A DNA stretch of 64,000 nt from positions 70,687 through 134,686 of the forward strand of contig JBPOHQ010000004.1 in NCBI GenBank assembly GCA_052035405.1. The letters are read 5' to 3'. Positions 27,049 to 53,621 of the stretch are shown here, piece after piece. The notes beneath the pieces were generated by a model. The model searched no databases. It worked only from the letters and a program-made list of their open reading frames with translations, and was not told where the DNA came from. Position 1 is the stretch's first letter, and each line of letters starts with the position of its first letter. The translations under genes and the position numbers were made by a program. This DNA is from Candidatus Nomurabacteria bacterium. GTDB taxonomy: Bacteria > Patescibacteriota > Minisyncoccia > Phycocordibacterales > UBA9973.

Positions 27049-27399
27049 CTAGTCGTTTTTATCGTGAATCAAAAGTTTATTTCCAACCCAAGTTAGGATT
27101 GATACTACTAACGCTCCTAATACTGCTGGAATGAAACCATCTACACTAAATCCTTCTATAAACGAAGCCACGAACCAGAAGAGTAACCCATTTATCACTA
27201 GAGAAAATAACCCTAGCGTAAGTATTGTGATTGGTAATGCAAGAATATGGAGAATTGGTTTTAAGAAAAAACTCACAAGTCCCCATACGAGTGCAACAAT
27301 AAGTGCGATATAAAAACTAGCGACCGTTATACCAGGTACAAAATACGCTGCACCAAGTACTGATAATGCTACAATTAACCATTTTAATATAAATTTCAT
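27049..27399 (-). CDS. phage-holin-4-2 / YvlD-like small membrane protein
   Basis: 116 aa, 3-4 TM helices, overall resemblance to the DUF360/holin_4_2 family (FVPGITV...GLFSLVINGLLFW). Confidence 0.45.
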   Translation of the reverse strand: MKFILKWLIVALSVLGAAYFVPGITVASFYIALIVALVWGLVSFFLKPILHILALPITILTLGLFSLVINGLLFWFVASFIEGFSVDGFIPAVLGALVVSILTWVGNKLLIHDKND

Positions 27400-39191: not shown

Positions 39192-39234
39192 AAGTTAAAT
39201 ATACTATTAGTGTTAGTTTATTGCTAGTGACATT

Positions 39235-39293
39235 CTTCACAAAAACGCAAAAGACTGGAGCAGTCCAGTCTTTTCTTTATAAGCGTTTTTATG
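39235..39293. terminator. ~58-nt nested-palindrome terminator module, copy A (AAAAACGC-AAAAGACTGGAGCAGTCCAGTCTTTT-CTTTATAA-GCGTTTTT)
   Basis: Near-identical (one extra A) to 42478-42540; inner 10-bp stem followed by T-run, outer 8-bp inverted repeat. Confidence 0.65.
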
Positions 39294-39381
39294 AGCGTTC
39301 AGCAGATAGAACCAAACAATTCGTTACCCTGTAAGGCTATTTTAGCTAGTTTTAGATAATTTTATCGACCCTTCTCGAGCG
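39291..39381 (+). ncRNA. element X copy 2
   Basis: TGAGCGTTCAGCAGATAGAAC...TTACCCTGTAAGG...CGACCCTTCTCGAGCG; same spacing as copies 1 and 3. Confidence 0.55.
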
Positions 39382-39409
39382 ATTGTTAAAAATACTAAAT
39401 TTCTGATGA

Positions 39410-40303
39410 CTATGTTTTGATAATTGTACCAATAAATGAACTTTCTGTATCGAATGATTTGTGAGTATATTGAGCGAGTTCAGACTCAAGTGATTCCTTG
39501 GTGTATCGTAATGACTGAAACACAATCAATTTGTCACCCGACGTAATACCAATGCTTTCTAGTGCTGAATTGGTATTAATCACTAAACATGACACTCGAA
39601 ATCCGTCGTCTGCAATTCTTGGTGAGATATCAGTGAATGGATCAAGTCCGATAAGTCGAACCTTGTCATCTACTAGTCGAACAGCATCTTCTTGATAAAC
39701 TTTTTGCAATTCAACCATATCTACACGATCACGCATCTGCGCATTTATAAACACAAAACCGTTTGTTCCCACAATGTCAGTAAGAAGCTTTAATATTTCT
39801 TGTGGTGCGTAATTTGAAAACGTAAGACCAAGAGAAACAAACCGAGGAACTGTGGATTCTCCAAGAACCTCAGGTAATTCTTCAAATGAGGCTTTCACTT
39901 TTCGTACAGGAATCCCTTGTGGTGTTGCGTGTGAATCTGCCATTTCAAGAAAGTGATCACTGATATCTACAGGAACATATATAAAAGATTTACCTTGTTT
40001 TTTAAGTTCATCAAACAGGAACTGCTCCTTGTGTTCTGTGCCTGGACCAAGATCAATGTATTCAAAATTATTTGGGAGTATATCTGCAATATTTTTTGCA
40101 ATTAGTTGTAGATATTCATGTTCTGGTTTTGTGACTAGTTTGAAATACGAAGTATCTTCTTCTTGTAACTGTTCGTAAACTGCATCGCCCGAACCAATGT
40201 AAATAAGAAGGGAATCCGAAAAATCCCAAATCCCATTATCTAGTTTCTTGAGAGATTTGAAGGCTCGATCCTTAAACCATTCTTGGTTGTATTTTCCATC
40301 CAT
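39410..40303 (-). CDS. SAM-dependent methyltransferase of the EgtD / Methyltransf_33 (histidine N-alpha-methyltransferase-like) family
   Basis: Collinear with EgtD: YIDLGPGTEHK (cf. ELGSGTSEK), YVPVDIS, SLGLTFSNY (cf. FLGSTIGNL); 297 aa. Confidence 0.55.
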   Translation of the reverse strand: MDGKYNQEWFKDRAFKSLKKLDNGIWDFSDSLLIYIGSGDAVYEQLQEEDTSYFKLVTKPEHEYLQLIAKNIADILPNNFEYIDLGPGTEHKEQFLFDELKKQGKSFIYVPVDISDHFLEMADSHATPQGIPVRKVKASFEELPEVLGESTVPRFVSLGLTFSNYAPQEILKLLTDIVGTNGFVFINAQMRDRVDMVELQKVYQEDAVRLVDDKVRLIGLDPFTDISPRIADDGFRVSCLVINTNSALESIGITSGDKLIVFQSLRYTKESLESELAQYTHKSFDTESSFIGTIIKT

Positions 40304-40316
40304 GTCTCAATTGTAT

Positions 40317-40347
40317 CACAAAAACAGCTCCCTTCGGAGCTGTTTTT
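40317..40347. terminator. rho-independent terminator (AAAAACAGCTCC-cttc-GGAGCTGTTTTT)
   Basis: Perfect 11-bp stem with flanking A/T runs between element X copy 3 and the methyltransferase start. Confidence 0.65.
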
Positions 40348-40372
40348 GTATGCTTCTCGTGCTAGCCCGAAA

Positions 40373-40463
40373 TGGTGAGCGTTCAGCAGATAGAACCTTT
40401 TGATTCATTGCCCAGTAAGGTCATTTACTACTTTTCATGATATCAGAACGACCCTTATTGTGC
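40373..40463 (+). ncRNA. element X copy 3
   Basis: GGTGAGCGTTCAGCAGATAGAAC...CATTGCCCAGTAAGG...ACGACCCTTATTGTGCG; preceded by an extra CTTCTCGTGC motif at 40351. Confidence 0.55.
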
Positions 40464-40478
40464 GACCTAGTAAAAAAG

Positions 40479-41516
40479 CTACGAAATTTCTTTTGCATGC
40501 TTCAGATATTCTAGGAAGGCAATCTTCATCTCCTTATTACTACCACTCTTGTTTATATCCGAACGGCTTCCTGACATAATTGTATTCACATCAGGCAGGT
40601 TCCAGGCTGTCTGGTCACTCAATATCCACCTATCATGGGTATCTCTAATAAGAGTGCTGTCGATTTTGAGCCATTCTAAACTAATACCCTTACTAGATAG
40701 CTCTTTTTTTAGATCCCGGTACTCCTTCAAGACCTTTGGAGTTATATGAACATCAAGCCCTAAGGAAAGAATTTTAATATCTTTGATTTTATTCGCATCA
40801 GCAGTCTCCCATATGTATTCAAGGCCAGCAGAAGTGAAATGCTTATCGAGCCAATAGATATTACCTTTACAGCCTGACAATACCCGTTTAAGCCACATCT
40901 TATTTCCATACGGACGTGTTGGATCAATAAATATACTTGATGGTATCTCCGTTTCTTCTGCTGTCTGATTGAAGAGAACTTGAATTGTCTTGAATTTCTT
41001 TGAATATGTAATCAAGCCGACCGAGTTCATCATCAACAGAAGATTTGTAAGAGGACTCTCATCCATATAACACCAGAAACCCCTACTCTTCAAAATCGAC
41101 AAGGCGTTCTCTTTTTTTGGATTTTTTACTCCGTAAAGCAACTGAAGTATTGCTTCACATGGAGGAAATTGGAGTAACCCTTTCTTGAGTGCTTCGTTAG
41201 CCCTATCTACCTCAGAACGAATATACCTACCGTGATAATAAGAAGTTCCAAGTTCAGTAAGACTGTCTGAGGTAATCTCCATAAATCCTAGTGACCTTAG
41301 AAAATCAATGTCATCGTTGGATCCATCGGAATCTTCATCTTCAGCAATCGCCTTCAATATTTTTTCGTAAGAACTCCAAGTTCTCTGAGGAAGAAGATGC
41401 TCTTCGTTGTTATTCTCCTGTAGATTCTGTGTCTCCATTTTCATTTGAACCATTGGTTTTAGAGTACTTGTCACTGAACCCCGTAACGGAAGAAATAAGT
41501 GCCTTGTAGTCATCAA
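40479..41516 (-). CDS. hypothetical protein (unknown family), gene A of an overlapping pair
   Basis: 345 aa, no recognisable catalytic signature; annotated start overlaps upstream gene by 107 nt (a later Met would cut this to ~29 nt). Confidence 0.5.
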   Translation of the reverse strand: MMTTRHLFLPLRGSVTSTLKPMVQMKMETQNLQENNNEEHLLPQRTWSSYEKILKAIAEDEDSDGSNDDIDFLRSLGFMEITSDSLTELGTSYYHGRYIRSEVDRANEALKKGLLQFPPCEAILQLLYGVKNPKKENALSILKSRGFWCYMDESPLTNLLLMMNSVGLITYSKKFKTIQVLFNQTAEETEIPSSIFIDPTRPYGNKMWLKRVLSGCKGNIYWLDKHFTSAGLEYIWETADANKIKDIKILSLGLDVHITPKVLKEYRDLKKELSSKGISLEWLKIDSTLIRDTHDRWILSDQTAWNLPDVNTIMSGSRSDINKSGSNKEMKIAFLEYLKHAKEIS

Positions 41517-42141
41517 GAAGACCTATATTCGTAAGAATATCTTTTGGAAGAATCAAACTGATACCACTTTTCCCAAATGGGATTACGGTGTGTTCTGAGT
41601 CTGTCGCAATAGTAGTTTTAGAACCTGGTCTGGTAATCTGCGCTTTTGCAACTGGCTTTCTTGTGGGTGTATTTGATGGAATTCTTGGAGTCTTTATCTG
41701 AGCGGAAACCTCTCGAAGACCTGCTTGTTCACAAAGATACACAAATGCTGGTACGGCACCCGTAGCAACTCGTGAACTTATCTTGTATACATGCATGAAA
41801 TCGTTATGCAGTTCATCCTTGCCCATGGTACATGCCTCAGGAACAACTTTGAGGAGGGCCTCATATGAGGTTTTTACCATCTCAACAAGTGCCTGTGCTT
41901 TTGCATCACCCTTATATCCCATTTTTGCCATCAAGGATGTACTATTGGAGTCGGCATCTATCAATCCAAGGAATCTCAAGGAGGCAACAGCCAAATTTGC
42001 ATCACTGCTGGAGAATGAGTGGGTAAGGAAATAATCAGGATTCAATGATGTCATACTTCTTGCACTTATCAGAGAAAGTACTTTCTCGAGTCTAGTAGCA
42101 CTCAAATACGCTGGTGACAATGGTCTTTTTTCTTCAGTCAT
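41410..42141 (-). CDS. hypothetical protein (unknown family), gene B of an overlapping pair
   Basis: 243 aa; structured N-terminal ~150 aa, Pro/Thr/Lys-rich linker, C-terminal ~60 aa; no known motif. Confidence 0.5.
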   Translation of the reverse strand: MTEEKRPLSPAYLSATRLEKVLSLISARSMTSLNPDYFLTHSFSSSDANLAVASLRFLGLIDADSNSTSLMAKMGYKGDAKAQALVEMVKTSYEALLKVVPEACTMGKDELHNDFMHVYKISSRVATGAVPAFVYLCEQAGLREVSAQIKTPRIPSNTPTRKPVAKAQITRPGSKTTIATDSEHTVIPFGKSGISLILPKDILTNIGLLDDYKALISSVTGFSDKYSKTNGSNENGDTESTGE

Positions 42142-42477
42142 AGTTTTATGTGAATTAATTTATAATGATATTATAAATCTATCATACCCATACAACTAAA
42201 TCAAGTTTTTATTAAAATAATAAAAGCCTTGTAGATAAGCATTTTTAGTGAGAAAATTTTTTATAATATAAAATTATCACTCAGTCAATATATAAATAAT
42301 GTCCATTAAACTCTAAATCCCATCTACTTGAAGCGTGTACTCAAATTAATTATAATATCCATTTTATTTAAACACTCGTGCGAGCTGTTGATGGTGAGCC
42401 ACAATAATTTGTTCGCCGTCGCTCACAAATTTTCCAGCCCCGGACTCAGCTGTTTTTCTTACTAGAAAAACATGCTT

Positions 42478-42540
42478 CCGTCTTCACAAAAACGCAAAAA
42501 GACTGGAGCAGTCCAGTCTTTTCTTTATAAGCGTTTTTGT
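42478..42540. terminator. ~58-nt nested-palindrome terminator module, copy B, abutting the tRNA-Glu(UUC) 3' end
   Basis: CGTCTTCACAAAAACGCAAAAAGACTGGAGCAGTCCAGTCTTTTCTTTATAAGCGTTTTTGTG; see copy A. Confidence 0.65.
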
Positions 42541-42611
42541 GACCCTACAGAGAATCGAACTCTGATTACCGCCTTGAAAAGGCGATGTCCTAACCGTTAG
42601 ACGATAGGGCC
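42540..42611 (-). tRNA. tRNA-Glu (anticodon UUC)
   Basis: Reverse complement GGCCCTA-TC-GTCTAACGGTTAGGAC-A-TCGCC-TTTTCAA-GGCGG-TAAT-CAGAG-TTCGATT-CTCTG-TAGGGTC-A; near-paralog of the Glu-CUC gene at 17786. Confidence 0.75.
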
Positions 42612-42758
42612 ATATGGGACATAATATAATATTTATGTTCTAATTGCAAAGGGTTTGATCTACAATATAACATTTTAACGTTTGCCTTTATATAAATAAA
42701 AAAGTAGGATACAAAAGAACAAAACCGAGCCTAGCGGTAAAACTAAGCATGATACAGT

Positions 42759-43289
42759 ATGAGACAGCTCTTTTTTATAGTCCTATTACTTGGGACTTCT
42801 AGATCATCACTCGCACAGCTGTCCCTAGAACAGATTGTGCACAACTACGAGACAGTACATGATACAATTCTTCCAGTATGTTTTTTGGAAAAAATTACAG
42901 GAATCTATAATTTTGTCGGAAGCCCTAAGATAGGCATAGACAGCAAAGGGTCAAGATTTTTCCCTGGAAAAATCTTCATTAGAGATAGTTCTGCTGTTTT
43001 TTCTCTTATAGAAGAAATGGCCCATGCATATCAATGGGAACAAAAAGGTGGTAAATTCAGAATGACTATAGCCCTAACAGGCTTGTCATTTAAAGCACTC
43101 TGGCGTACGGTCTTTTCTAAAAAACCAAAAAATTCTCGGAGTAAAAGAGGTACCGTTTGGCAACACTACACTGCATTCGCATACGAACCTATGCGAAGAA
43201 ATTTCTGGGCCTATGAATTTGAGGCTCATCATGTGATCTCTCCAGACATGCTTCAATATTTAAGTGAACCATGCGAGACAAAAAAATAA
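42759..43289 (+). CDS. hypothetical secreted protein
   Basis: 176 aa with N-terminal signal peptide (LFFIVLLLGTSRSSLA); no known domain. Confidence 0.45.
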   Translation: MRQLFFIVLLLGTSRSSLAQLSLEQIVHNYETVHDTILPVCFLEKITGIYNFVGSPKIGIDSKGSRFFPGKIFIRDSSAVFSLIEEMAHAYQWEQKGGKFRMTIALTGLSFKALWRTVFSKKPKNSRSKRGTVWQHYTAFAYEPMRRNFWAYEFEAHHVISPDMLQYLSEPCETKK

Positions 43290-43364
43290 TTATTTTATAA
43301 AAAGTAAACGCTTCTCTGCACAAAAATGCAGAGAAGCGTATTTTATTTATTTAATTTTAATAAC

Positions 43365-43925
43365 TTATTTTATCATTTCTACTAATGCCTCATAAGCTTC
43401 TGGGAGCTCGATAATACCCGCAGACCCGTTCAAGTGCCCACCGTTTGGGATTACAATAAGTTTTCCATTTGTCTCTCGTGCTATTTCTTCTCCGTCTGAA
43501 AGTGCCACATAAGGGTCATTGTCTCCATGTATCACAACTACATTTTTTATATTTTCTTTTATCTTTTCAAAGTCCGGTTCAACATTAAGAAAATTTAGAA
43601 TCTTTTCATTCTTTGTCTTATGACAAGGAGCAGAGACAAATATAGCACCCTTAATATTTTCATCATGATATCTTTCAAAATAACGAAGTAGTGTGGTTCC
43701 CCCTAAACTATGCCCTAATAAATATATTTCGTCATTTTTATTTCTATCTACTAGTCTTTTTATCTCTTCTAGCCACTCTTCGAGGATAGGCTCGCCAGGA
43801 GTTGGCATAGACAGTGAGCAAGCGTAGACATCAATCTTCCCTAGATCTGCCATGAGTTTTGTTCTCCATGCACCATTTGGAACACCTTCAAAACCATGTA
43901 TCAAGAATACTTTTTTATTTTCCAT
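43365..43925 (-). CDS. alpha/beta-hydrolase, YdeN/RBBP9-like serine hydrolase
   Basis: 186 aa; nucleophile elbow GHSLGG, C-terminal HGDNDPYV and GGHLN motifs typical of the Ser_hydrolase family. Confidence 0.6.
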   Translation of the reverse strand: MENKKVFLIHGFEGVPNGAWRTKLMADLGKIDVYACSLSMPTPGEPILEEWLEEIKRLVDRNKNDEIYLLGHSLGGTTLLRYFERYHDENIKGAIFVSAPCHKTKNEKILNFLNVEPDFEKIKENIKNVVVIHGDNDPYVALSDGEEIARETNGKLIVIPNGGHLNGSAGIIELPEAYEALVEMIK

Positions 43926-49524: not shown

Positions 49525-49600
49525 TGGTGCCGAGACCCAGGGTCGAACTGGGGACCTATCCCTCTTCAGGGGAGCGCTCTACCAACTGAGCTATCTCGGC
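49525..49600 (-). tRNA. tRNA-Phe (anticodon GAA), CCA encoded
   Basis: Reverse complement GCCGAGA-TA-GCTCAGTTGGTAGAGC-G-CTCCC-CTGAAGA-GGGAT-AGGTC-CCCAG-TTCGACC-CTGGG-TCTCGGC-A-CCA. Confidence 0.8.
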
Positions 49601-49607
49601 AAATAAG

Positions 49608-49886
49608 TTACTTCTTAAATTTATTTATAAATTCTTGAAATGCGTTAGAGTGTATATCTACCTTTTGTTCAAAAGTAGATATTGAATTATACGCATTTAT
49701 AACCTTATCAAAATATGGTTCCAGATATACAAAGGCTCCGTAAGATAAACCAACAACAACCAACAACTTAATAATAGAAAATAAAGCTGTACGTTTCTGT
49801 ACTGCCCGTACCTTATGCAACATTGCATTGTTTTCTTTTGCTATTTCAAAGGTTGCCTGTAATAACTTTTTGGATTCTGGGTCCAC
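49608..49886 (-). CDS. hypothetical small membrane protein
   Basis: 92 aa, one central TM helix. Confidence 0.35.
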   Translation of the reverse strand: MDPESKKLLQATFEIAKENNAMLHKVRAVQKRTALFSIIKLLVVVGLSYGAFVYLEPYFDKVINAYNSISTFEQKVDIHSNAFQEFINKFKK

Positions 49887-49966: not shown

Positions 49967-50485
49967 ATGCATTTTATTACATCTGGACGCAAAAATCACT
50001 CTTCTGGTTTTACGTTATTAGAATTACTTGTAGTTATTGCCATAATAGGTATTTTCTCCAGCATTATATTGGTTAATATTAATTTAAACAGAAAGAAAGC
50101 AAGAGATGGAGCAATCAAAACTCAACTAAAACAATTTCAAAATATTTTAGCTCTTGAATACAATGATACAGGTAGCTATGCAAACCTACAAACCGATGTA
50201 TGGTCTCCTGAAACTCCTTGCAATACTGCTTTTGCGGGTAATTATGCTACTCAAGCGACACAAATATGTAATGAAATAACTAAATTAGCAGGAAGTTGGG
50301 GTGTTTGGGGTGCTCCATATAAATTATATGCTGGAAATGCCGTTGATCCAGCAACAAAATATTCGATTATGGTACCTTTAAATTCAAAAAATACTTTTTA
50401 TTGCATAGGAAGCAGTGGAAGTTCTGACACTGAAGACACCCTTGATGGAGTGTTAGACACTATTGGCTGCGAAGAGAATCCTTAA
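49967..50485 (+). CDS. type IV pilin / pseudopilin (prepilin-type N-terminal cleavage/methylation domain)
   Basis: G-F-T-L-L-E-L-L-V-V-I-A-I-I-G class III signal motif after a short leader; C-terminal Cys pair. Confidence 0.8.
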   Translation: MHFITSGRKNHSSGFTLLELLVVIAIIGIFSSIILVNINLNRKKARDGAIKTQLKQFQNILALEYNDTGSYANLQTDVWSPETPCNTAFAGNYATQATQICNEITKLAGSWGVWGAPYKLYAGNAVDPATKYSIMVPLNSKNTFYCIGSSGSSDTEDTLDGVLDTIGCEENP

Positions 50486-50586
50486 AGATTTCTTGTCTTT
50501 TCTGTAATTCTATGGTTTAATAAAAAGAATCGGGCATGAGGCTCGATTTTTTTGTTCTTTCCACAATTTAAAAACTTTTACACAGG

Positions 50587-52281
50587 ATGAAGAAGTTACC
50601 TATTCCACTTATTATCTTTCTATTTTTGGCAGCTCAAAGCCTGGCACAAACATGGAATCCACTTAGCGATACTCTTAACGGGTTTGTTACCTGTGGAGTA
50701 AACACTGGCACACCAAACAATCTTTTACCTGAAGCACTTCTCGGTGGAACTTTCACCCAAACCAAAAACGGTATTACGTCTCCTTTAGTTATCAAATACG
50801 ACAACTGGACGCACGATTTTACACAAGTAACGGGCTTTGATCAAACAACCGACAAAGTAGTAGGATTTTTTAAAAGAAACGGTTCCTGGTATGCCTACGG
50901 TAAATTTAAAGTCGGAACTAATCTGTATTACGGTGCAATGGAATTCAACAGCGACAATACCGTAGCCACGCCAAATGCTCAGTTTCAATTCAAAGGGGCA
51001 CTTGCGAGCACAGGAAAAATTGAATCTCTGGGTATAGACACACTAACTAATGAAGTTATCTTTTACGGCAACACCTTGGCCCGCATGGGTCCAGGTAGTG
51101 GCGTAAACCTTGCAGCAAAAGTCGGTAAAATGACCCTTGACGGTACAGTAACAGCTCTTGGAGCACTGACACCCACACATGCATCTGAAAATCCAACGAT
51201 CCTAACAATCGGCTGGAAAAATTCAGAATGGTCCATCCTCGGCAACTTTGAAATGCTTGGTGGTACTTCAGTAAACGATCTTGGTACGTGGAACGGCACA
51301 AATGTAACTGCGATAAATACAAACACGAACACAGACGTACGATGCAGCGGATATTCTAACGGTTATTTAGGTTGGAATGGGTTTATTACCGACCTCGGAG
51401 TTAATTCGCCTGGTGGATTAAAATTAAACAATGGCAATCTTGAGGCACTTGGTGGTGGATGGAACATTGCAACAAAGCATGTGATCCAGCGAAACAACTT
51501 TGTATGGTTCTCTGGTGCAAAGCAAGCATCGGGTTCGAGATTAGCGACTTTCGATGTTCTCACTTCTAGTTGGACAAACAGACAAACCAATCTACTTACG
51601 GTGGATAATGATACAATTATTCTGAACGGTATCGTTCATTTCCCTGGAGACAGTCTGATGGTGTTTGGAAATTTTAATTCAACAAACTCTTCCATCCCTG
51701 GCGGCCTTGCCGTTGGCAAAGTCGCTTCGATTGCTTTACCGGTAGAATTAACCTCCTTCACGGGACGGTTAATAAACGGCAAAGTTTTACTACAGTGGCA
51801 TACTAAAACCGAGCACAAGAATCGTGGATTTAAAATCGAAAGAGCAAATGCTGAATTTCAGTGGACCGAAATTGATTTTATTGCAGGAAACGGAGATAGC
51901 GATTTGCCACAAGATTATTCTTACTGGGACAATAGACCGTTAGACGGTTTAAGTTACTATCGTTTAGTTCAAATGGATGAAGACAGTAAACTGACTTACC
52001 TACCCGCAATCAAAATTGAAAAAATTATTACAGGTATTAAGGTATCTCCGAATCCAGCATATGAAAGTATCCTAATTGAAATTGAAAGCAATCAAGAAAC
52101 AAGCGGATCAGTTGATGTTATAACCATTATTGGCAAAACGATATGCACAATACCTATTACTATTAATTCCGGGATGAACGAGACATCCTTAAGTCTCCTG
52201 GGCATTCCGAGTGGAAATTACATATTGCAAATTACTACGGAAAATCAGATTTTCAGAACACAGTTAATTATTTCGAACTAA
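50587..52281 (+). CDS. secreted beta-rich protein with Bacteroidota-type C-terminal sorting domain (T9SS/Por_Secre_tail-like); compositionally foreign
   Basis: Signal peptide (LIIFLFLAAQSLAQ); Asn/Gly/Thr-rich body; C-terminal ~75 aa VSPNPAYESILIEIES...GKTICTIPI...LGIPSGNYILQITTENQIFRTQLIISN resembles T9SS CTDs; preceded by an ELTSF...YYRL-type domain; GC ~41-51% in hand-counted samples versus ~31% for neighbours. Confidence 0.6.
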   Translation: MKKLPIPLIIFLFLAAQSLAQTWNPLSDTLNGFVTCGVNTGTPNNLLPEALLGGTFTQTKNGITSPLVIKYDNWTHDFTQVTGFDQTTDKVVGFFKRNGSWYAYGKFKVGTNLYYGAMEFNSDNTVATPNAQFQFKGALASTGKIESLGIDTLTNEVIFYGNTLARMGPGSGVNLAAKVGKMTLDGTVTALGALTPTHASENPTILTIGWKNSEWSILGNFEMLGGTSVNDLGTWNGTNVTAINTNTNTDVRCSGYSNGYLGWNGFITDLGVNSPGGLKLNNGNLEALGGGWNIATKHVIQRNNFVWFSGAKQASGSRLATFDVLTSSWTNRQTNLLTVDNDTIILNGIVHFPGDSLMVFGNFNSTNSSIPGGLAVGKVASIALPVELTSFTGRLINGKVLLQWHTKTEHKNRGFKIERANAEFQWTEIDFIAGNGDSDLPQDYSYWDNRPLDGLSYYRLVQMDEDSKLTYLPAIKIEKIITGIKVSPNPAYESILIEIESNQETSGSVDVITIIGKTICTIPITINSGMNETSLSLLGIPSGNYILQITTENQIFRTQLIISN

Positions 52282-52403
52282 TCGCCTGGTAAAATTTACC
52301 AAAAAATCATTAGCCCTAACACTTTACAAAGGAAGAGTGTCAGGGCTTTTTTATTTTCTACTGATTTTGGAATAGTATTTTTATATGGTAAATTATACAC
52401 ATT

Positions 52404-52475
52404 GCCCTCATAGTTCAATGGATAGAACAGTTCCGTCCTAAGGAATAGATCCCCGTTCGATTCGGAGTGAGGGCA
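52404..52475 (+). tRNA. tRNA-Arg (anticodon CCU)
   Basis: GCCCTCA-TA-GTTCAATGGATAGAAC-A-GTTCC-GTCCTAA-GGAAT-AGAT-CCCCG-TTCGATT-CGGAG-TGAGGGC-A; one mismatch in T-stem. Confidence 0.65.
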
Positions 52476-52519
52476 CAATATAAAAAATCTTCCAAAAAGG
52501 AAGATTTTTTATATTGTGC
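52473..52519. terminator. long perfect palindrome/terminator (GCACAATATAAAAAATCTTCC-aaaaa-GGAAGATTTTTTATATTGTGC) overlapping the tRNA-Arg 3' end
   Basis: 21-bp perfect stem read directly. Confidence 0.7.
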
Positions 52520-52532
52520 TTTATAGCTTTAA

Positions 52533-52769
52533 TTATTTAATTCCGAGGAGTTCAACTATCTTTGGTTTGTTAAAACCTACAACGACATTATTACCTATGA
52601 CTATTACAGGTACGCCCATTTGACCACTCTTTTCAATCATTTCCTTTCTTTTATCTGTATCTACACCAACATTAAAGTCAGTAAAAGCTACGTTGTTTTC
52701 TGTAAAAAAGTCTTTTGCCATATGACAGAAGTGACATGATTCAGTTGAATATATAGTTACATTTTCCAT
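52533..52769 (-). CDS. glutaredoxin-family small redoxin (NrdH/YruB-like)
   Basis: 78 aa; CHFC active site near the N-terminus, GVPVIVIG motif. Confidence 0.75.
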   Translation of the reverse strand: MENVTIYSTESCHFCHMAKDFFTENNVAFTDFNVGVDTDKRKEMIEKSGQMGVPVIVIGNNVVVGFNKPKIVELLGIK

Positions 52770-52823: not shown

Positions 52824-53621
52824 CTACAAATTATTGATTTGAATGTTTTCTACGTGAGACGCTGCTTCTGTAATACCCCTCCGCATCATAGTGACCACTT
52901 CTACTGGATACTTCCCCACGGTAGTCTCTTCAGAGAGCATAAGAGCGTCAGCTCCGTGCAAAACAGCAAAAGCAATATCAGTCATCTCAGCACGAGTAGG
53001 TGCAGGGTTCTCAGTCATTGAGAGTAATACTTGCGTAGCAACTATTACAGGCTTACCTGCTACCTTACATTTATTTAAAATATCCTTCTCGACAAAAGGG
53101 ATCTGTTCAAAAGGAATTTCATTTCCCATATCACCTCGGGCAATCATAATAGCATCAGCTACTGCTATAATGGAATCGATATTTTCCACCGCAATAGTGC
53201 GTTCGATTTTTGCAATAATAGGAATACGCTTACCTAATTTATCCATTTCTTCTTGTAATTGTAAAACATCCAGAGCTTTCCCTACATATGATAATGCTAC
53301 ATAATCTACTTCTTGCTGTATACCAAACGCTAAGTCCTCTAAATCTTTTTTTGTTATTACTTCTAAAGAAGATTTATCAAACTCATGACCATCGTCATTG
53401 GTCATTCTTGGTCCAGATAAATCTTGTATTATTGGAATTTGAAGGTTGAGTTCTTTACTCGCTTCTCGTATATTATTTATAAGAATTCCATGCTCTTCGT
53501 GTGTTCCATGAGAAAAGTTCAACCTAGCTAAACTCATACCGGCTTCCATTATTTTTTTAAGAATCTCTTTTTCTTTTGTGGCAGGACCGATGGTTGCTAC
53601 TATCTGTATTTGTTTACTCAT
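52824..53621 (-). CDS. pyk: pyruvate kinase, minimal form (A-domain barrel only; no B-domain lid or C-terminal domain)
   Basis: IVATIGPA...LARLNFSHGTHEEH N-terminus, MIARGDMGNEIP, and PK signature ...ATQVLLSM...PTRAEMTDIAFAVLHGADALMLSEETTVGKYP; only 265 aa with ~15 aa where the ~100 aa B domain normally sits. Confidence 0.65.
   Translation of the reverse strand: MSKQIQIVATIGPATKEKEILKKIMEAGMSLARLNFSHGTHEEHGILINNIREASKELNLQIPIIQDLSGPRMTNDDGHEFDKSSLEVITKKDLEDLAFGIQQEVDYVALSYVGKALDVLQLQEEMDKLGKRIPIIAKIERTIAVENIDSIIAVADAIMIARGDMGNEIPFEQIPFVEKDILNKCKVAGKPVIVATQVLLSMTENPAPTRAEMTDIAFAVLHGADALMLSEETTVGKYPVEVVTMMRRGITEAASHVENIQINNL

Follow-up and report, generated by a model that had tools for sequence, protein, structure and literature searches.

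A protein with a type IX secretion-type C-terminal domain in a strain-variable, pilin-linked cassette of Paceibacteria

The locus studied here raises the question of why a member of the Patescibacteria encodes a protein ending in the C-terminal domain (CTD) that is typical of cargo of the Bacteroidota type IX secretion system (T9SS). The gene lies in a 64-kb stretch of contig JBPOHQ010000004.1 (the window), where it forms an intact open reading frame (ORF) of 564 aa, with an ATG start and exact coordinates 50587..52281 (+). An earlier note, made from the sequence alone, had described this single ORF and its flanks (tRNA-Phe, a pilin gene and tRNA-Arg), all of which were recovered by ORF scan, ARAGORN, Rfam and Pfam. 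It had attributed the gene to recent horizontal transfer from Bacteroidota at a tRNA hotspot, or else to a chimeric contig or mis-binned reads, and neither explanation agrees with our results. The best explanation, to which we assign a probability of about 0.68, is that this is a genuine cassette gene of Paceibacteria, derived from an old acquisition and encoding a pilus-associated surface protein.

Host genome, insertion site and allelic exchange

The window comes from a small-genome member of the Patescibacteria (Paceibacteria or 'Nomurabacteria'-like), as had been supposed. The neighbouring valyl-tRNA synthetase (ValRS) has 543 relatives in GTDB genomes; among the best 80 of these (56-89% identity), every record with a named phylum belongs to Patescibacteria. 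Their labels are Paceibacterota or 'Nomurabacteria' metagenome-assembled genomes, 'uncultured Candidatus Saccharibacteria' records from a binning pipeline and, in some cases, 'bacterium' only. The rest of the window consists of housekeeping genes (ATP synthase, release factor, fructose-bisphosphate aldolase, GatB, Obg, aminoacyl-tRNA synthetases, enolase and LepA), together with a Mur/penicillin-binding protein (PBP)/MraW/MraZ cluster and FtsA/FtsZ. ORFs of the first 36 kb were scanned with Pfam, and those at ~37-62 kb were annotated through the syntenic genes of L005, a 40-kb contig from the Joint Genome Institute (JGI). This covers all but a few ORFs, which lie at ~38-43 kb or at the 3' terminus of the window. 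The ORFs scanned or annotated in this way include neither a T9SS component nor an integrase, a reverse transcriptase or any pilus machinery. The expectation that this lineage should lack a T9SS, which could be checked over 64 kb of the genome, agrees with the literature, where T9SS genes are reported only from phyla of the Fibrobacteres-Chlorobi-Bacteroidetes (FCB) group (PMC11285876).

The CTD-protein gene belongs to this genome of Paceibacteria, a lineage within the Patescibacteria or Candidate Phyla Radiation (CPR). An independent Logan assembly of 2797 nt (L001) is 100% identical to the window over orf92, the pilin gene, the CTD-protein gene and part of tRNA-Arg. Furthermore, L005 is fully syntenic and carries a different allele, P0093, at the locus, and two further JGI contigs of 13.8 kb and 7 kb have the same synteny and likewise an allele other than that of the window.

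Related Paceibacteria keep the order ValRS, PrsW, HSP20, tRNA-Phe, orf92, tRNA-Arg(CCT), glutaredoxin and pyruvate kinase, and in related species without the module orf92 directly abuts tRNA-Arg(CCT). Homologues of orf92 adjoin tRNA-Arg in 59 of the loci examined, nearly all of them from representatives of related species, and the pilin and either half of the CTD protein are absent from the locus in 80 of 80 such representatives. Therefore, the pilin gene and the CTD-protein gene form an insertion of ~2.4 kb between orf92 and tRNA-Arg. The site is a recurrent insertion hotspot, in accordance with the tRNA-associated insertion claimed earlier: other inserts occupy it in L016, L027, L026 and L017, and a 146-kb Paceibacterota scaffold (L076, 13960-16811) has a matrixin-like peptidase and a different secreted CTD protein between tRNA-Arg and tRNA-Gly. 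The latter is an unrelated protein of 450 aa (PF18962, 56 bits) with a signal peptide ending in IFA followed by Q, and Patescibacteria therefore carry more than one CTD-protein family. The matrixin-like metallopeptidase (PF00413) is present at the same hotspot in both L076 and L016 (13932-14864). Nothing points to an integrase-mediated island, since the inserted segment consists of two genes and no integrase was found among the window ORFs scanned or annotated; flanking direct repeats of att type do not rise above chance level. The segment is located 5' of tRNA-Arg, which is on the plus strand, and orf92 separates it from tRNA-Phe, so it does not occupy the 3' end of a tRNA gene as such islands do.

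Two homologous ORFs of ~210 aa (L012 12201-12842 (-) and L092 2489-3118 (-)), with 61% identity and an 'LYWGEGTK' motif, were observed beside tRNA-Arg(CCT) in contigs where this tRNA is inverted relative to the window. They were considered as LAGLIDADG homing endonucleases; Pfam returned a weak helix-turn-helix match only and the PDB no match, and this assignment was rejected.

Within the species, the CTD-protein gene is a replaceable cassette. Comparison of the window with L005 gives 93-100% identity for 18 syntenic proteins over the parts that align (97% or more for most; glutaredoxin aligns only in part, at 91%), while the CTD proteins share 63%. The alleles P0002 (L003 and L004) and P0003 (L002) are 43-46% identical to that of the window, with flanks at 96-99% nucleotide identity, and alleles within the species range from 43 to 70%. 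The boundaries are sharp: nucleotide identity to L005 and L002 drops from 97-100% to 44-80% at ~50430-50440, in the last pilin codons, and recovers to 89-97% at ~52300-52330. At the left border of the insertion, orf92 is 100% identical across L005-L010. The proportion of synonymous differences (pS) in the cassette is 0.57-0.81, which is saturated, compared with a synonymous divergence (dS) of 0-0.3 in the flanking genes. The corresponding non-synonymous proportion (pN) is far below pS in every comparison of alleles, with an apparent dN/dS of 0.06-0.24; this shows that purifying selection acts on the gene, which is therefore no pseudogene. Saturated pS together with low pN indicates that the alleles are old and constrained, and that they were put in place by recombination rather than made there.

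The alleles also differ in how their parts pair. In the N-terminal domain the window allele groups with P0093 (72%) and P0002 with P0003 (83%), whereas in the CTD, where allele identities range from 33 to 71%, the sole close pair is P0093 with P0002 (71%). Between these modules, 41 nt (51736-51776) are identical at every position, synonymous sites included, in the alleles of the window, L005 and L003, and L003 and L005 share an exact match of 44 nt at this joint. The joint may be the signature of a crossover between N- and C-terminal modules, and we regard it as a putative crossover point. A further allele, P0004 (L011), switches parent at the 44-nt stretch common to two parental alleles, and was considered as a decisive natural recombinant. 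It was rejected as such because L011 is probably an assembly chimera. This contig (1-3183, JGI 3300045378) passes from glutaredoxin and ~60 nt of pyruvate kinase into DNA of ~60% GC at nt ~1930, and its foreign part encodes an N-terminus resembling PorV and a protein whose tail is FlgD_ig/CTD-like.

Strain-variable surface-protein or receptor cassettes that move by homologous recombination between conserved flanks, such as the flexible genomic islands for O-antigen, pilin and adhesin, share with the locus near-identical flanks, sharp boundaries, ancient alleles, purifying selection on each allele and mosaics of modules. The present cassette differs from them in being a single gene of 1.9 kb that encodes a protein of T9SS-cargo type in a CPR host, at a locus without glycosyltransferases or mobile-element genes.

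Protein architecture and ancestry of the family

The protein is made up of a signal peptide and three domains (Table 1). A hydropathy reading at sequence level gave no second hydrophobic segment beyond the signal-peptide-like N-terminus. The C-terminal sorting domain and the ELTSF...YYRL module ahead of it, both proposed in the earlier note, were confirmed. Residues 487-562 of 564 match PF18962 (Por_Secre_tail) at 30.4 bits (cutoff 27), and TIGR04183 reaches 41 bits (cutoff 23), both above their curated cutoffs; a module homologous to ELTSF...YYRL is found in ~75 CTD proteins of FCB type. In addition, the family profile matches solved T9SS CTDs from Flavobacterium and Tannerella cargo, namely 8glk_D (1.4e-8), 8glj_D, 7pzj, 5jvk and 8qb1. 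The profile score, the extreme C-terminal position and the predicted seven-strand fold all place the domain among the CTD-type domains.

Structure was predicted with AlphaFold2 on an alignment of 13 sequences (mean predicted local distance difference test (pLDDT) 86.6); this run superseded one with 5 sequences, in which the N-terminal domain reached a pLDDT of 20-30. In the model the N-terminal domain has 28 predicted strands, with pLDDT mostly 84-96, and the CTD seven predicted strands at 481-562, with pLDDT 77-92. Foldseek against the PDB placed the ectodomains of three Bacteroides hybrid two-component system (HTCS) sensors at the top for the N-terminal domain (4a2m, 3ott and 3v9f, E 7e-9 to 2.5e-6), and also returned tandem pairs of fibronectin type III (FN3) domains. 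The model makes a seven-bladed beta-propeller the probable fold of the N-terminal domain. The likeness to the periplasmic HTCS ectodomains (BT4663, BT4673 and BT3049) lies in a propeller or propellers followed by an Ig-like domain. However, identity is 8-11% and global TM-scores are 0.15-0.21, so that only the fold class is common to both, and the window protein has no transmembrane or signalling domains. The middle domain has no Pfam or NCBIfam match in the libraries used.

Foldseek against BFVD returned RCC1/Kelch-like, Fn3 and CTD-bearing phage proteins. Two of the phage proteins (A0A6J5M2J1 and A0A6J5M064) show that phages carry CTD-type domains, and phages could be vectors that move CTD modules between phyla. 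As for the family itself, a single-protein scan of viral contigs gave no match, and thus no evidence that it is phage-borne.

An exhaustive profile hidden Markov model (HMM) search of 1.84 billion proteins with the N-terminal domain (360 residues) found 12 representative clusters, whose proteins have 510-566 aa and all share the three-domain layout. The motif and signal-peptide counts that follow refer to 13 family members. The exhaustive HMM search was needed, as a word-indexed homology search with the N-terminal domain alone retrieved just 2 members. PF18962 matches are precomputed on all members listed in the homology search or checked for context. Genomic contexts were examined for six lineages, and every member whose context can be assigned lies in Paceibacteria. 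In L092 an orthologous prepilin gene is directly upstream of the family member and tRNA-Arg(CCT) downstream. L093 has the same arrangement together with an orf92 homologue, glutaredoxin and DivIC, and its LepA is 84% identical to that of the window; it represents the same insertion point in another lineage. The 49-kb contig L097 encodes an FtsK with 70-87% identity to named proteins of Paceibacterota, and here the family gene sits amid PG_binding_1, PKD and SpaA-type surface proteins. Finally, in L094-L096 and L098 a gene for a 342-aa sortase directly follows the family member. The family has diverged to 27-70% identity within Paceibacteria; members outside the species of the window are at 27-37%, and two of them occupy the same orf92/tRNA-Arg site. 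As a separate observation, positions 3-116 of L094 and the start of L095 encode what we take, from its motif (...NRPRKRLGWKTPLEVF...), to be the C-terminal end of an IS30-like transposase; this element is directly upstream of P0100, which is followed by the sortase gene.

Outside the family, ~75 proteins match over the last ~30% only (the C-terminal ~180 residues), at 25-36% identity in nearly all cases; where named, they are CTD proteins of Bacteroidota, Ignavibacteria and Saprospiraceae. The middle domain is 45-50% identical to T9SS cargo of FCB bacteria, e.g. P0007, and the CTD 24-35%. In the clade of the window, the alleles are closest to one another in their C-terminal modules. All 13 members have [A/G]-Q at the aligned signal-peptide junction, a Q-rule described as specific to substrates of signal peptidase I in Bacteroidetes (PMC5837995). 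In ~1.2 Mb of Paceibacteria DNA, a crude heuristic found this junction in 6 of 117 signal-peptide-like N-termini, and two of the six belong to CTD proteins.

By virtue of the Q-rule, the middle domain and the CTD, the whole gene seems to derive from a Bacteroidetes T9SS cargo gene, and the Bacteroidota-style cargo architecture described in the earlier note is thereby confirmed. Most likely, the family descends from an old cross-phylum acquisition of this kind and has been retained without a T9SS; the direction and the age of the transfer are what we infer from these comparisons. The protein shares with T9SS type-A cargo of Bacteroidota and other FCB bacteria (8GLK_D, 8GLJ_D, 7PZJ and the mirolase 8QB1) the Sec signal peptide with Q at +1, a functional domain, an Ig/FN3-like spacer and a terminal seven-strand sandwich of ~80 residues with PNP...GxY...hydrophobic-tail motifs. 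It differs in its host, a CPR bacterium with no T9SS gene among the scanned ORFs of the window, in an N-terminal domain that has no FCB homologue, and in the neighbours of the family, namely genes for pilin, sortase, PG-binding and SpaA-type proteins, as they typically occur with a monoderm-style envelope. We do not classify it as a functional T9SS cargo, given its Patescibacteria lineage and the reported absence of T9SS outside FCB phyla (PMC11285876). As to the envelope, the sortase, PG_binding_1 and SpaA-like genes near family members are indirect hints of a monoderm-type surface apparatus. Our literature search found nothing relevant on T9SS-type CTDs in CPR bacteria.

Pilin linkage, function and alternative explanations

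The upstream gene has the prepilin cleavage/methylation motif (GFTLxE) and the hydrophobic helix of type IV pilins. Its sequence reads SSGFTLLELLVVIAIIG, and PF07963 scores 34.5 bits (cutoff 21.2) and TIGR02532 30.6 bits (cutoff 16.3); the equivalog models GspG, GspH, PilA and ComGC are all below cutoff, and we call it a type IV prepilin/pseudopilin gene. The pilus link that had been suggested is borne out by the orthologous prepilins directly upstream of family members in L092 (59% identity) and L093 (50%), which bring to three the lineages with this arrangement. A metagenome scan with the pilin gave two distant pilins only, in ordinary pilus or cell-wall contexts and without the CTD-protein family. 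The pilin body is invariant among strains, and the window allele alone differs, in its last ~14 residues. Co-variation of the pilin C-terminus with the CTD-protein alleles was considered and rejected, as three very different alleles share one pilin C-terminus.

Cultivated Patescibacteria bind to their hosts by means of type IV pili (PMC12206443), and the following mechanism may be proposed. A two-gene module between orf92 and tRNA-Arg(CCT) couples the pilin to the CTD-protein gene, whose old alleles are most likely swapped by homologous recombination through the conserved flanks, with N- and C-terminal modules reshuffled at the conserved linker joint. The protein would be exported by the Sec pathway and presented at the cell surface or the pilus, or close to them. 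There its propeller may act as a strain-specific binding or recognition module, either in host-cell attachment or as a phage or host-defence target, with diversity maintained by frequency-dependent selection from hosts or phages. The CTD must have a T9SS-independent role, as it is retained under purifying selection in a phylum without reported T9SS genes (PMC11285876), and most likely this role is that of an Ig-like domain for structure or anchoring, not that of a signal for export by a T9SS. Judging from sequence, the gene product is probably a host- or phage-facing recognition protein; surface display, the adhesin or recognition function and the role of the CTD are all presumptive in this sense, as are the direction and age of the transfer.

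PilY1/PilC, the pilus-associated beta-propeller adhesins, offer a parallel: they too are secreted proteins, with a probable seven-bladed propeller as the shared feature, encoded beside a (minor) pilin gene. The window protein differs in being about half the size and in having FN3 and CTD domains, and the scanned ORFs of the window include no pilus assembly genes. Sequence or profile similarity to PilY1 was neither sought nor found.

Several observations weigh against the proposal of an old, Paceibacteria-restricted and pilus-associated cassette. The members linked to a sortase (L094-L096 and L098) lack taxonomic assignment. The C-terminal modules of P0096 and P0098 are about equally similar to FCB proteins and to the family, so a single acquisition does not follow from them, and the Q-rule comparison depends on a crude signal-peptide heuristic. 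A terminator-like hairpin stands between the pilin and CTD-protein genes, so their co-expression is not assured. The apparent recombinant P0004 is on a probably chimeric contig. Finally, the CTD-protein gene is still the strongest compositional outlier of the window, and a fairly recent import of the window allele from outside the sampled Paceibacteria is conceivable.

Among the alternatives, the one that fares best is that the CTD keeps a sorting role in a pathway other than T9SS, either sortase-like attachment to the cell wall or pseudopilin-linked export and assembly (a piston like that of the type II secretion system (T2SS) or Com, or a pilus-tip adhesin). We consider it a possibility, well behind an anchoring role. 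The sortase genes downstream of the family member in L094-L096 and L098, the prepilins upstream in three lineages and the retention of the CTD under purifying selection in 13 of 13 members speak for it. However, a regular-expression and hydropathy scan found no conserved LPxTG-type motif, transmembrane anchor, C-terminal hydrophobic segment or charged tail in the 13 members, none of which has the features of a sortase substrate. Moreover, the window locus has no sortase, the adjacency to sortase may reflect the clustering of surface genes, as around the PG_binding_1 and SpaA genes of L097, and the hairpin mentioned above parts the pilin gene from the CTD-protein gene.

Far less probable is that an epibiotic CPR cell shows the CTD and the Q-rule N-terminus as molecular mimicry, with the CTD docking onto T9SS shuttle or attachment proteins (PorV/PorU/PorZ) exposed on the surface of a Bacteroidota host. 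In that case the pilus-linked adhesin would recognise the host's T9SS as its receptor, and the diversity of the CTD (33-71% identity) and of the propeller would stem from an arms race against variants of the host surface. If true, this would tell in which phylum an uncultured Paceibacteria lineage has its host and would be a new case of a secretion system exploited from outside.

An equally improbable account is that a complete T9SS cargo gene was recently transferred from a Bacteroidota donor at the tRNA hotspot, as the earlier note had proposed. One line of support is base composition. The claim that the gene is foreign in composition held in direction and was overstated in size. No other part of the window deviates as strongly in tetranucleotide distance (z = 4.6), and in synonymous codon usage the gene ranks first of 62 ORFs. 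Its GC content is 40.8%, against a mean of 35.7% (sd 3.2) for 62 window ORFs, a z of only ~1.6; GC at third codon positions (GC3) is 36.1% against 27.1% (sd 5.4). Four other window ORFs equal or exceed it in GC, and only 1.4% of gene-sized windows are equally GC-rich. The richest 100-nt window of the gene reaches 54% GC. The pilin gene is host-like (GC3 0.20), with a GC content of 34.5% and not the ~31% given before. The raised GC is limited to the first ~1.3 kb of the gene (nt 50600-51900, 0.41-0.47; N-terminal domain 0.43), and its CTD-encoding 3' end is host-like (0.34-0.36).

This composition, the absence of the module at the locus in 80 related species and the cargo-like architecture with its Q-rule signal peptide would all fit a recent transfer. 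However, the FCB matches are confined to the last ~30% at 25-36% identity in nearly all cases, and the N-terminal domain, restricted to Paceibacteria wherever context is assignable, has no FCB relative in the exhaustive HMM search. Members at 27-37% identity are already present in other Paceibacteria, two at the same site, synonymous divergence between alleles of the species is saturated, and there is neither an integrase nor an att-like direct repeat. The compositional anomaly is better explained by exchange of cassettes among Paceibacteria of differing GC. As the GC of family members (0.33-0.45) roughly tracks that of the local genome, the excess GC of the window allele fits an import from somewhat GC-richer Paceibacteria.

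In-situ hypermutation or diversification of a resident gene, whether by a diversity-generating retroelement (DGR) or under strong positive selection, instead of exchange of old alleles, is more improbable still. DGRs are reported to be common in CPR genomes, and the CTD protein diverges dramatically more than its neighbours. However, saturated synonymous sites with an apparent dN/dS of 0.06-0.24 are the opposite of non-synonymous diversification, and the divergence covers the whole gene and intergenic DNA. No template/variable repeat pair was found in the window, nor any repeat longer than ~30 nt between the cassette and its remainder, and no reverse transcriptase occurs among the Pfam-scanned or L005-syntenic ORFs. 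DGR was therefore rejected, on account of the old, constrained alleles and the lack of such repeats.

Finally, an assembly chimera or mis-binned reads, by which the gene would be physically foreign to the CPR genome, retain next to no probability: the composition unlike that of the neighbours, the many short locus contigs that end near the gene and the chimeric look of L011 would suit them, but the identity of the independent L001 and the full synteny of the L005-type JGI contigs with another allele exclude them, the 3' third of the gene has host-like GC, and short contigs are expected where differing strains co-exist.

Other features of the locus and implications

The coordinates of the locus and of a second variable region are given in Table 1.

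Table 1. Coordinates, strand and basis of the features discussed (positions in the window)
Feature	Position	Strand	Basis	Remarks
tRNA-Phe(GAA)	49525..49600	-	ARAGORN; Rfam RF00005, 65.2 bits	Conserved left landmark; position kept in related species
orf92	49608..49886	-		Small conserved protein of 92 aa; left border of the insertion point
Type IV prepilin/pseudopilin gene	49967..50485	+	PF07963, TIGR02532	172 aa; conserved partner of the CTD-protein gene
Strain-variable cassette	50441..52300	.		Segment swapped between near-identical genomes
Terminator-like hairpin between pilin and CTD-protein genes	50523..50553	+	Consensus scan	13-pair stem, then T-run
CTD-protein gene	50587..52281	+		Secreted three-domain protein, 564 aa
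Sec-type signal peptide, residues 1-20	50587..50646	+	MKKLPIPLIIFLFLAAQSLA then QTW, read from sequence	Predicted cleavage after SLA, then Q at +1
N-terminal all-beta domain, residues 21-383	50647..51735	+	AlphaFold2, Foldseek	Family-defining; GC-richest
Linker joint LPVELTSFTGRLIN	51736..51776	+	Codon alignment of window, L005 and L003	41 nt; putative crossover point
Middle FN3/Ig-like beta-sandwich, residues 384-480 ('ELTSF...YYRL')	51736..52026	+	Foldseek	pLDDT 73-91
T9SS type-A-like CTD, residues 481-564	52027..52278	+	PF18962, TIGR04183	Seven-strand beta-sandwich
Terminator-like hairpin 3' of the CTD-protein gene	52312..52355	+	Read by eye; unreported by consensus scan	AGCCCTAACACT...AGTGTCAGGGC then T-run
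tRNA-Arg(CCT)	52404..52476	+	ARAGORN, Rfam	Right border of the insertion point; hotspot landmark
Glutaredoxin gene	52533..52769	-	PF00462 (L005 gene table)	Conserved right flank; syntenic in 51 loci
Methyltransf_33 protein	39410-40303			In second variable region
Second compositional outlier ORF	40479-41516			345 aa; no Pfam or PADLOC match
Overlapping ORF	41410-42141		PADLOC PDC-M34A, E 1.3e-11	243 aa; candidate defence family

To the right of the cassette, a perfect inverted repeat of 21 nt with a 5-nt loop (52473-52519) extends over the 3' end of tRNA-Arg and lies opposite the end of the glutaredoxin gene. This repeat probably serves as a terminator in both directions, and a copy of this stretch at 83-87% identity recurs in homologous loci. 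Further on, a pyruvate kinase homologue of 265 aa (52824-53621 (-)) matches PF00224 only and has about half the usual length. This length is conserved in L005, L006 and L008, and as a query the protein matches 17 loci; it may be a truncated or split form characteristic of the lineage.

A second strain-variable region (39209-43369) lies beside tRNA-Glu(TTC) (42539-42611) and measures ~4.1 kb in the window against ~1.1 kb, including a NUDIX gene, in L005. With the ORFs given in Table 1, it may be a small defence island. At its edge, a 176-aa ORF (42759-43289 (+)), without Pfam or PADLOC match, also has a signal-peptide end of SLA followed by Q. Finally, the MraZ/MraW/PBP/Mur division cluster has just upstream of it a gene (27049-27399 (-)) for a holin-like protein (PF04020 Phage_holin_4_2, 109 bits).

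What is new here is a T9SS-type CTD protein and a recombining cassette in an unexpected phylum, with a propeller domain that is nearly an orphan. A T9SS 'sorting' domain persists under purifying selection in a phylum without reported T9SS genes, and CTD profile hits in CPR bins are thus evidence neither for a T9SS nor for contamination. With its sharp boundaries and conserved internal joint, the cassette offers a clear case from nature of alleles exchanged in modules, in genomes supposed to be streamlined and static. Host recognition and attachment by the ultrasmall cells of CPR/Patescibacteria are largely unknown outside a few cultivated Saccharibacteria. The locus provides a concrete candidate for host attachment, a pilin-linked and strain-variable secreted protein with a probable propeller, and the signal peptide and tail of that protein, both of Bacteroidetes type, give a hint as to the organisms with which this lineage associates.

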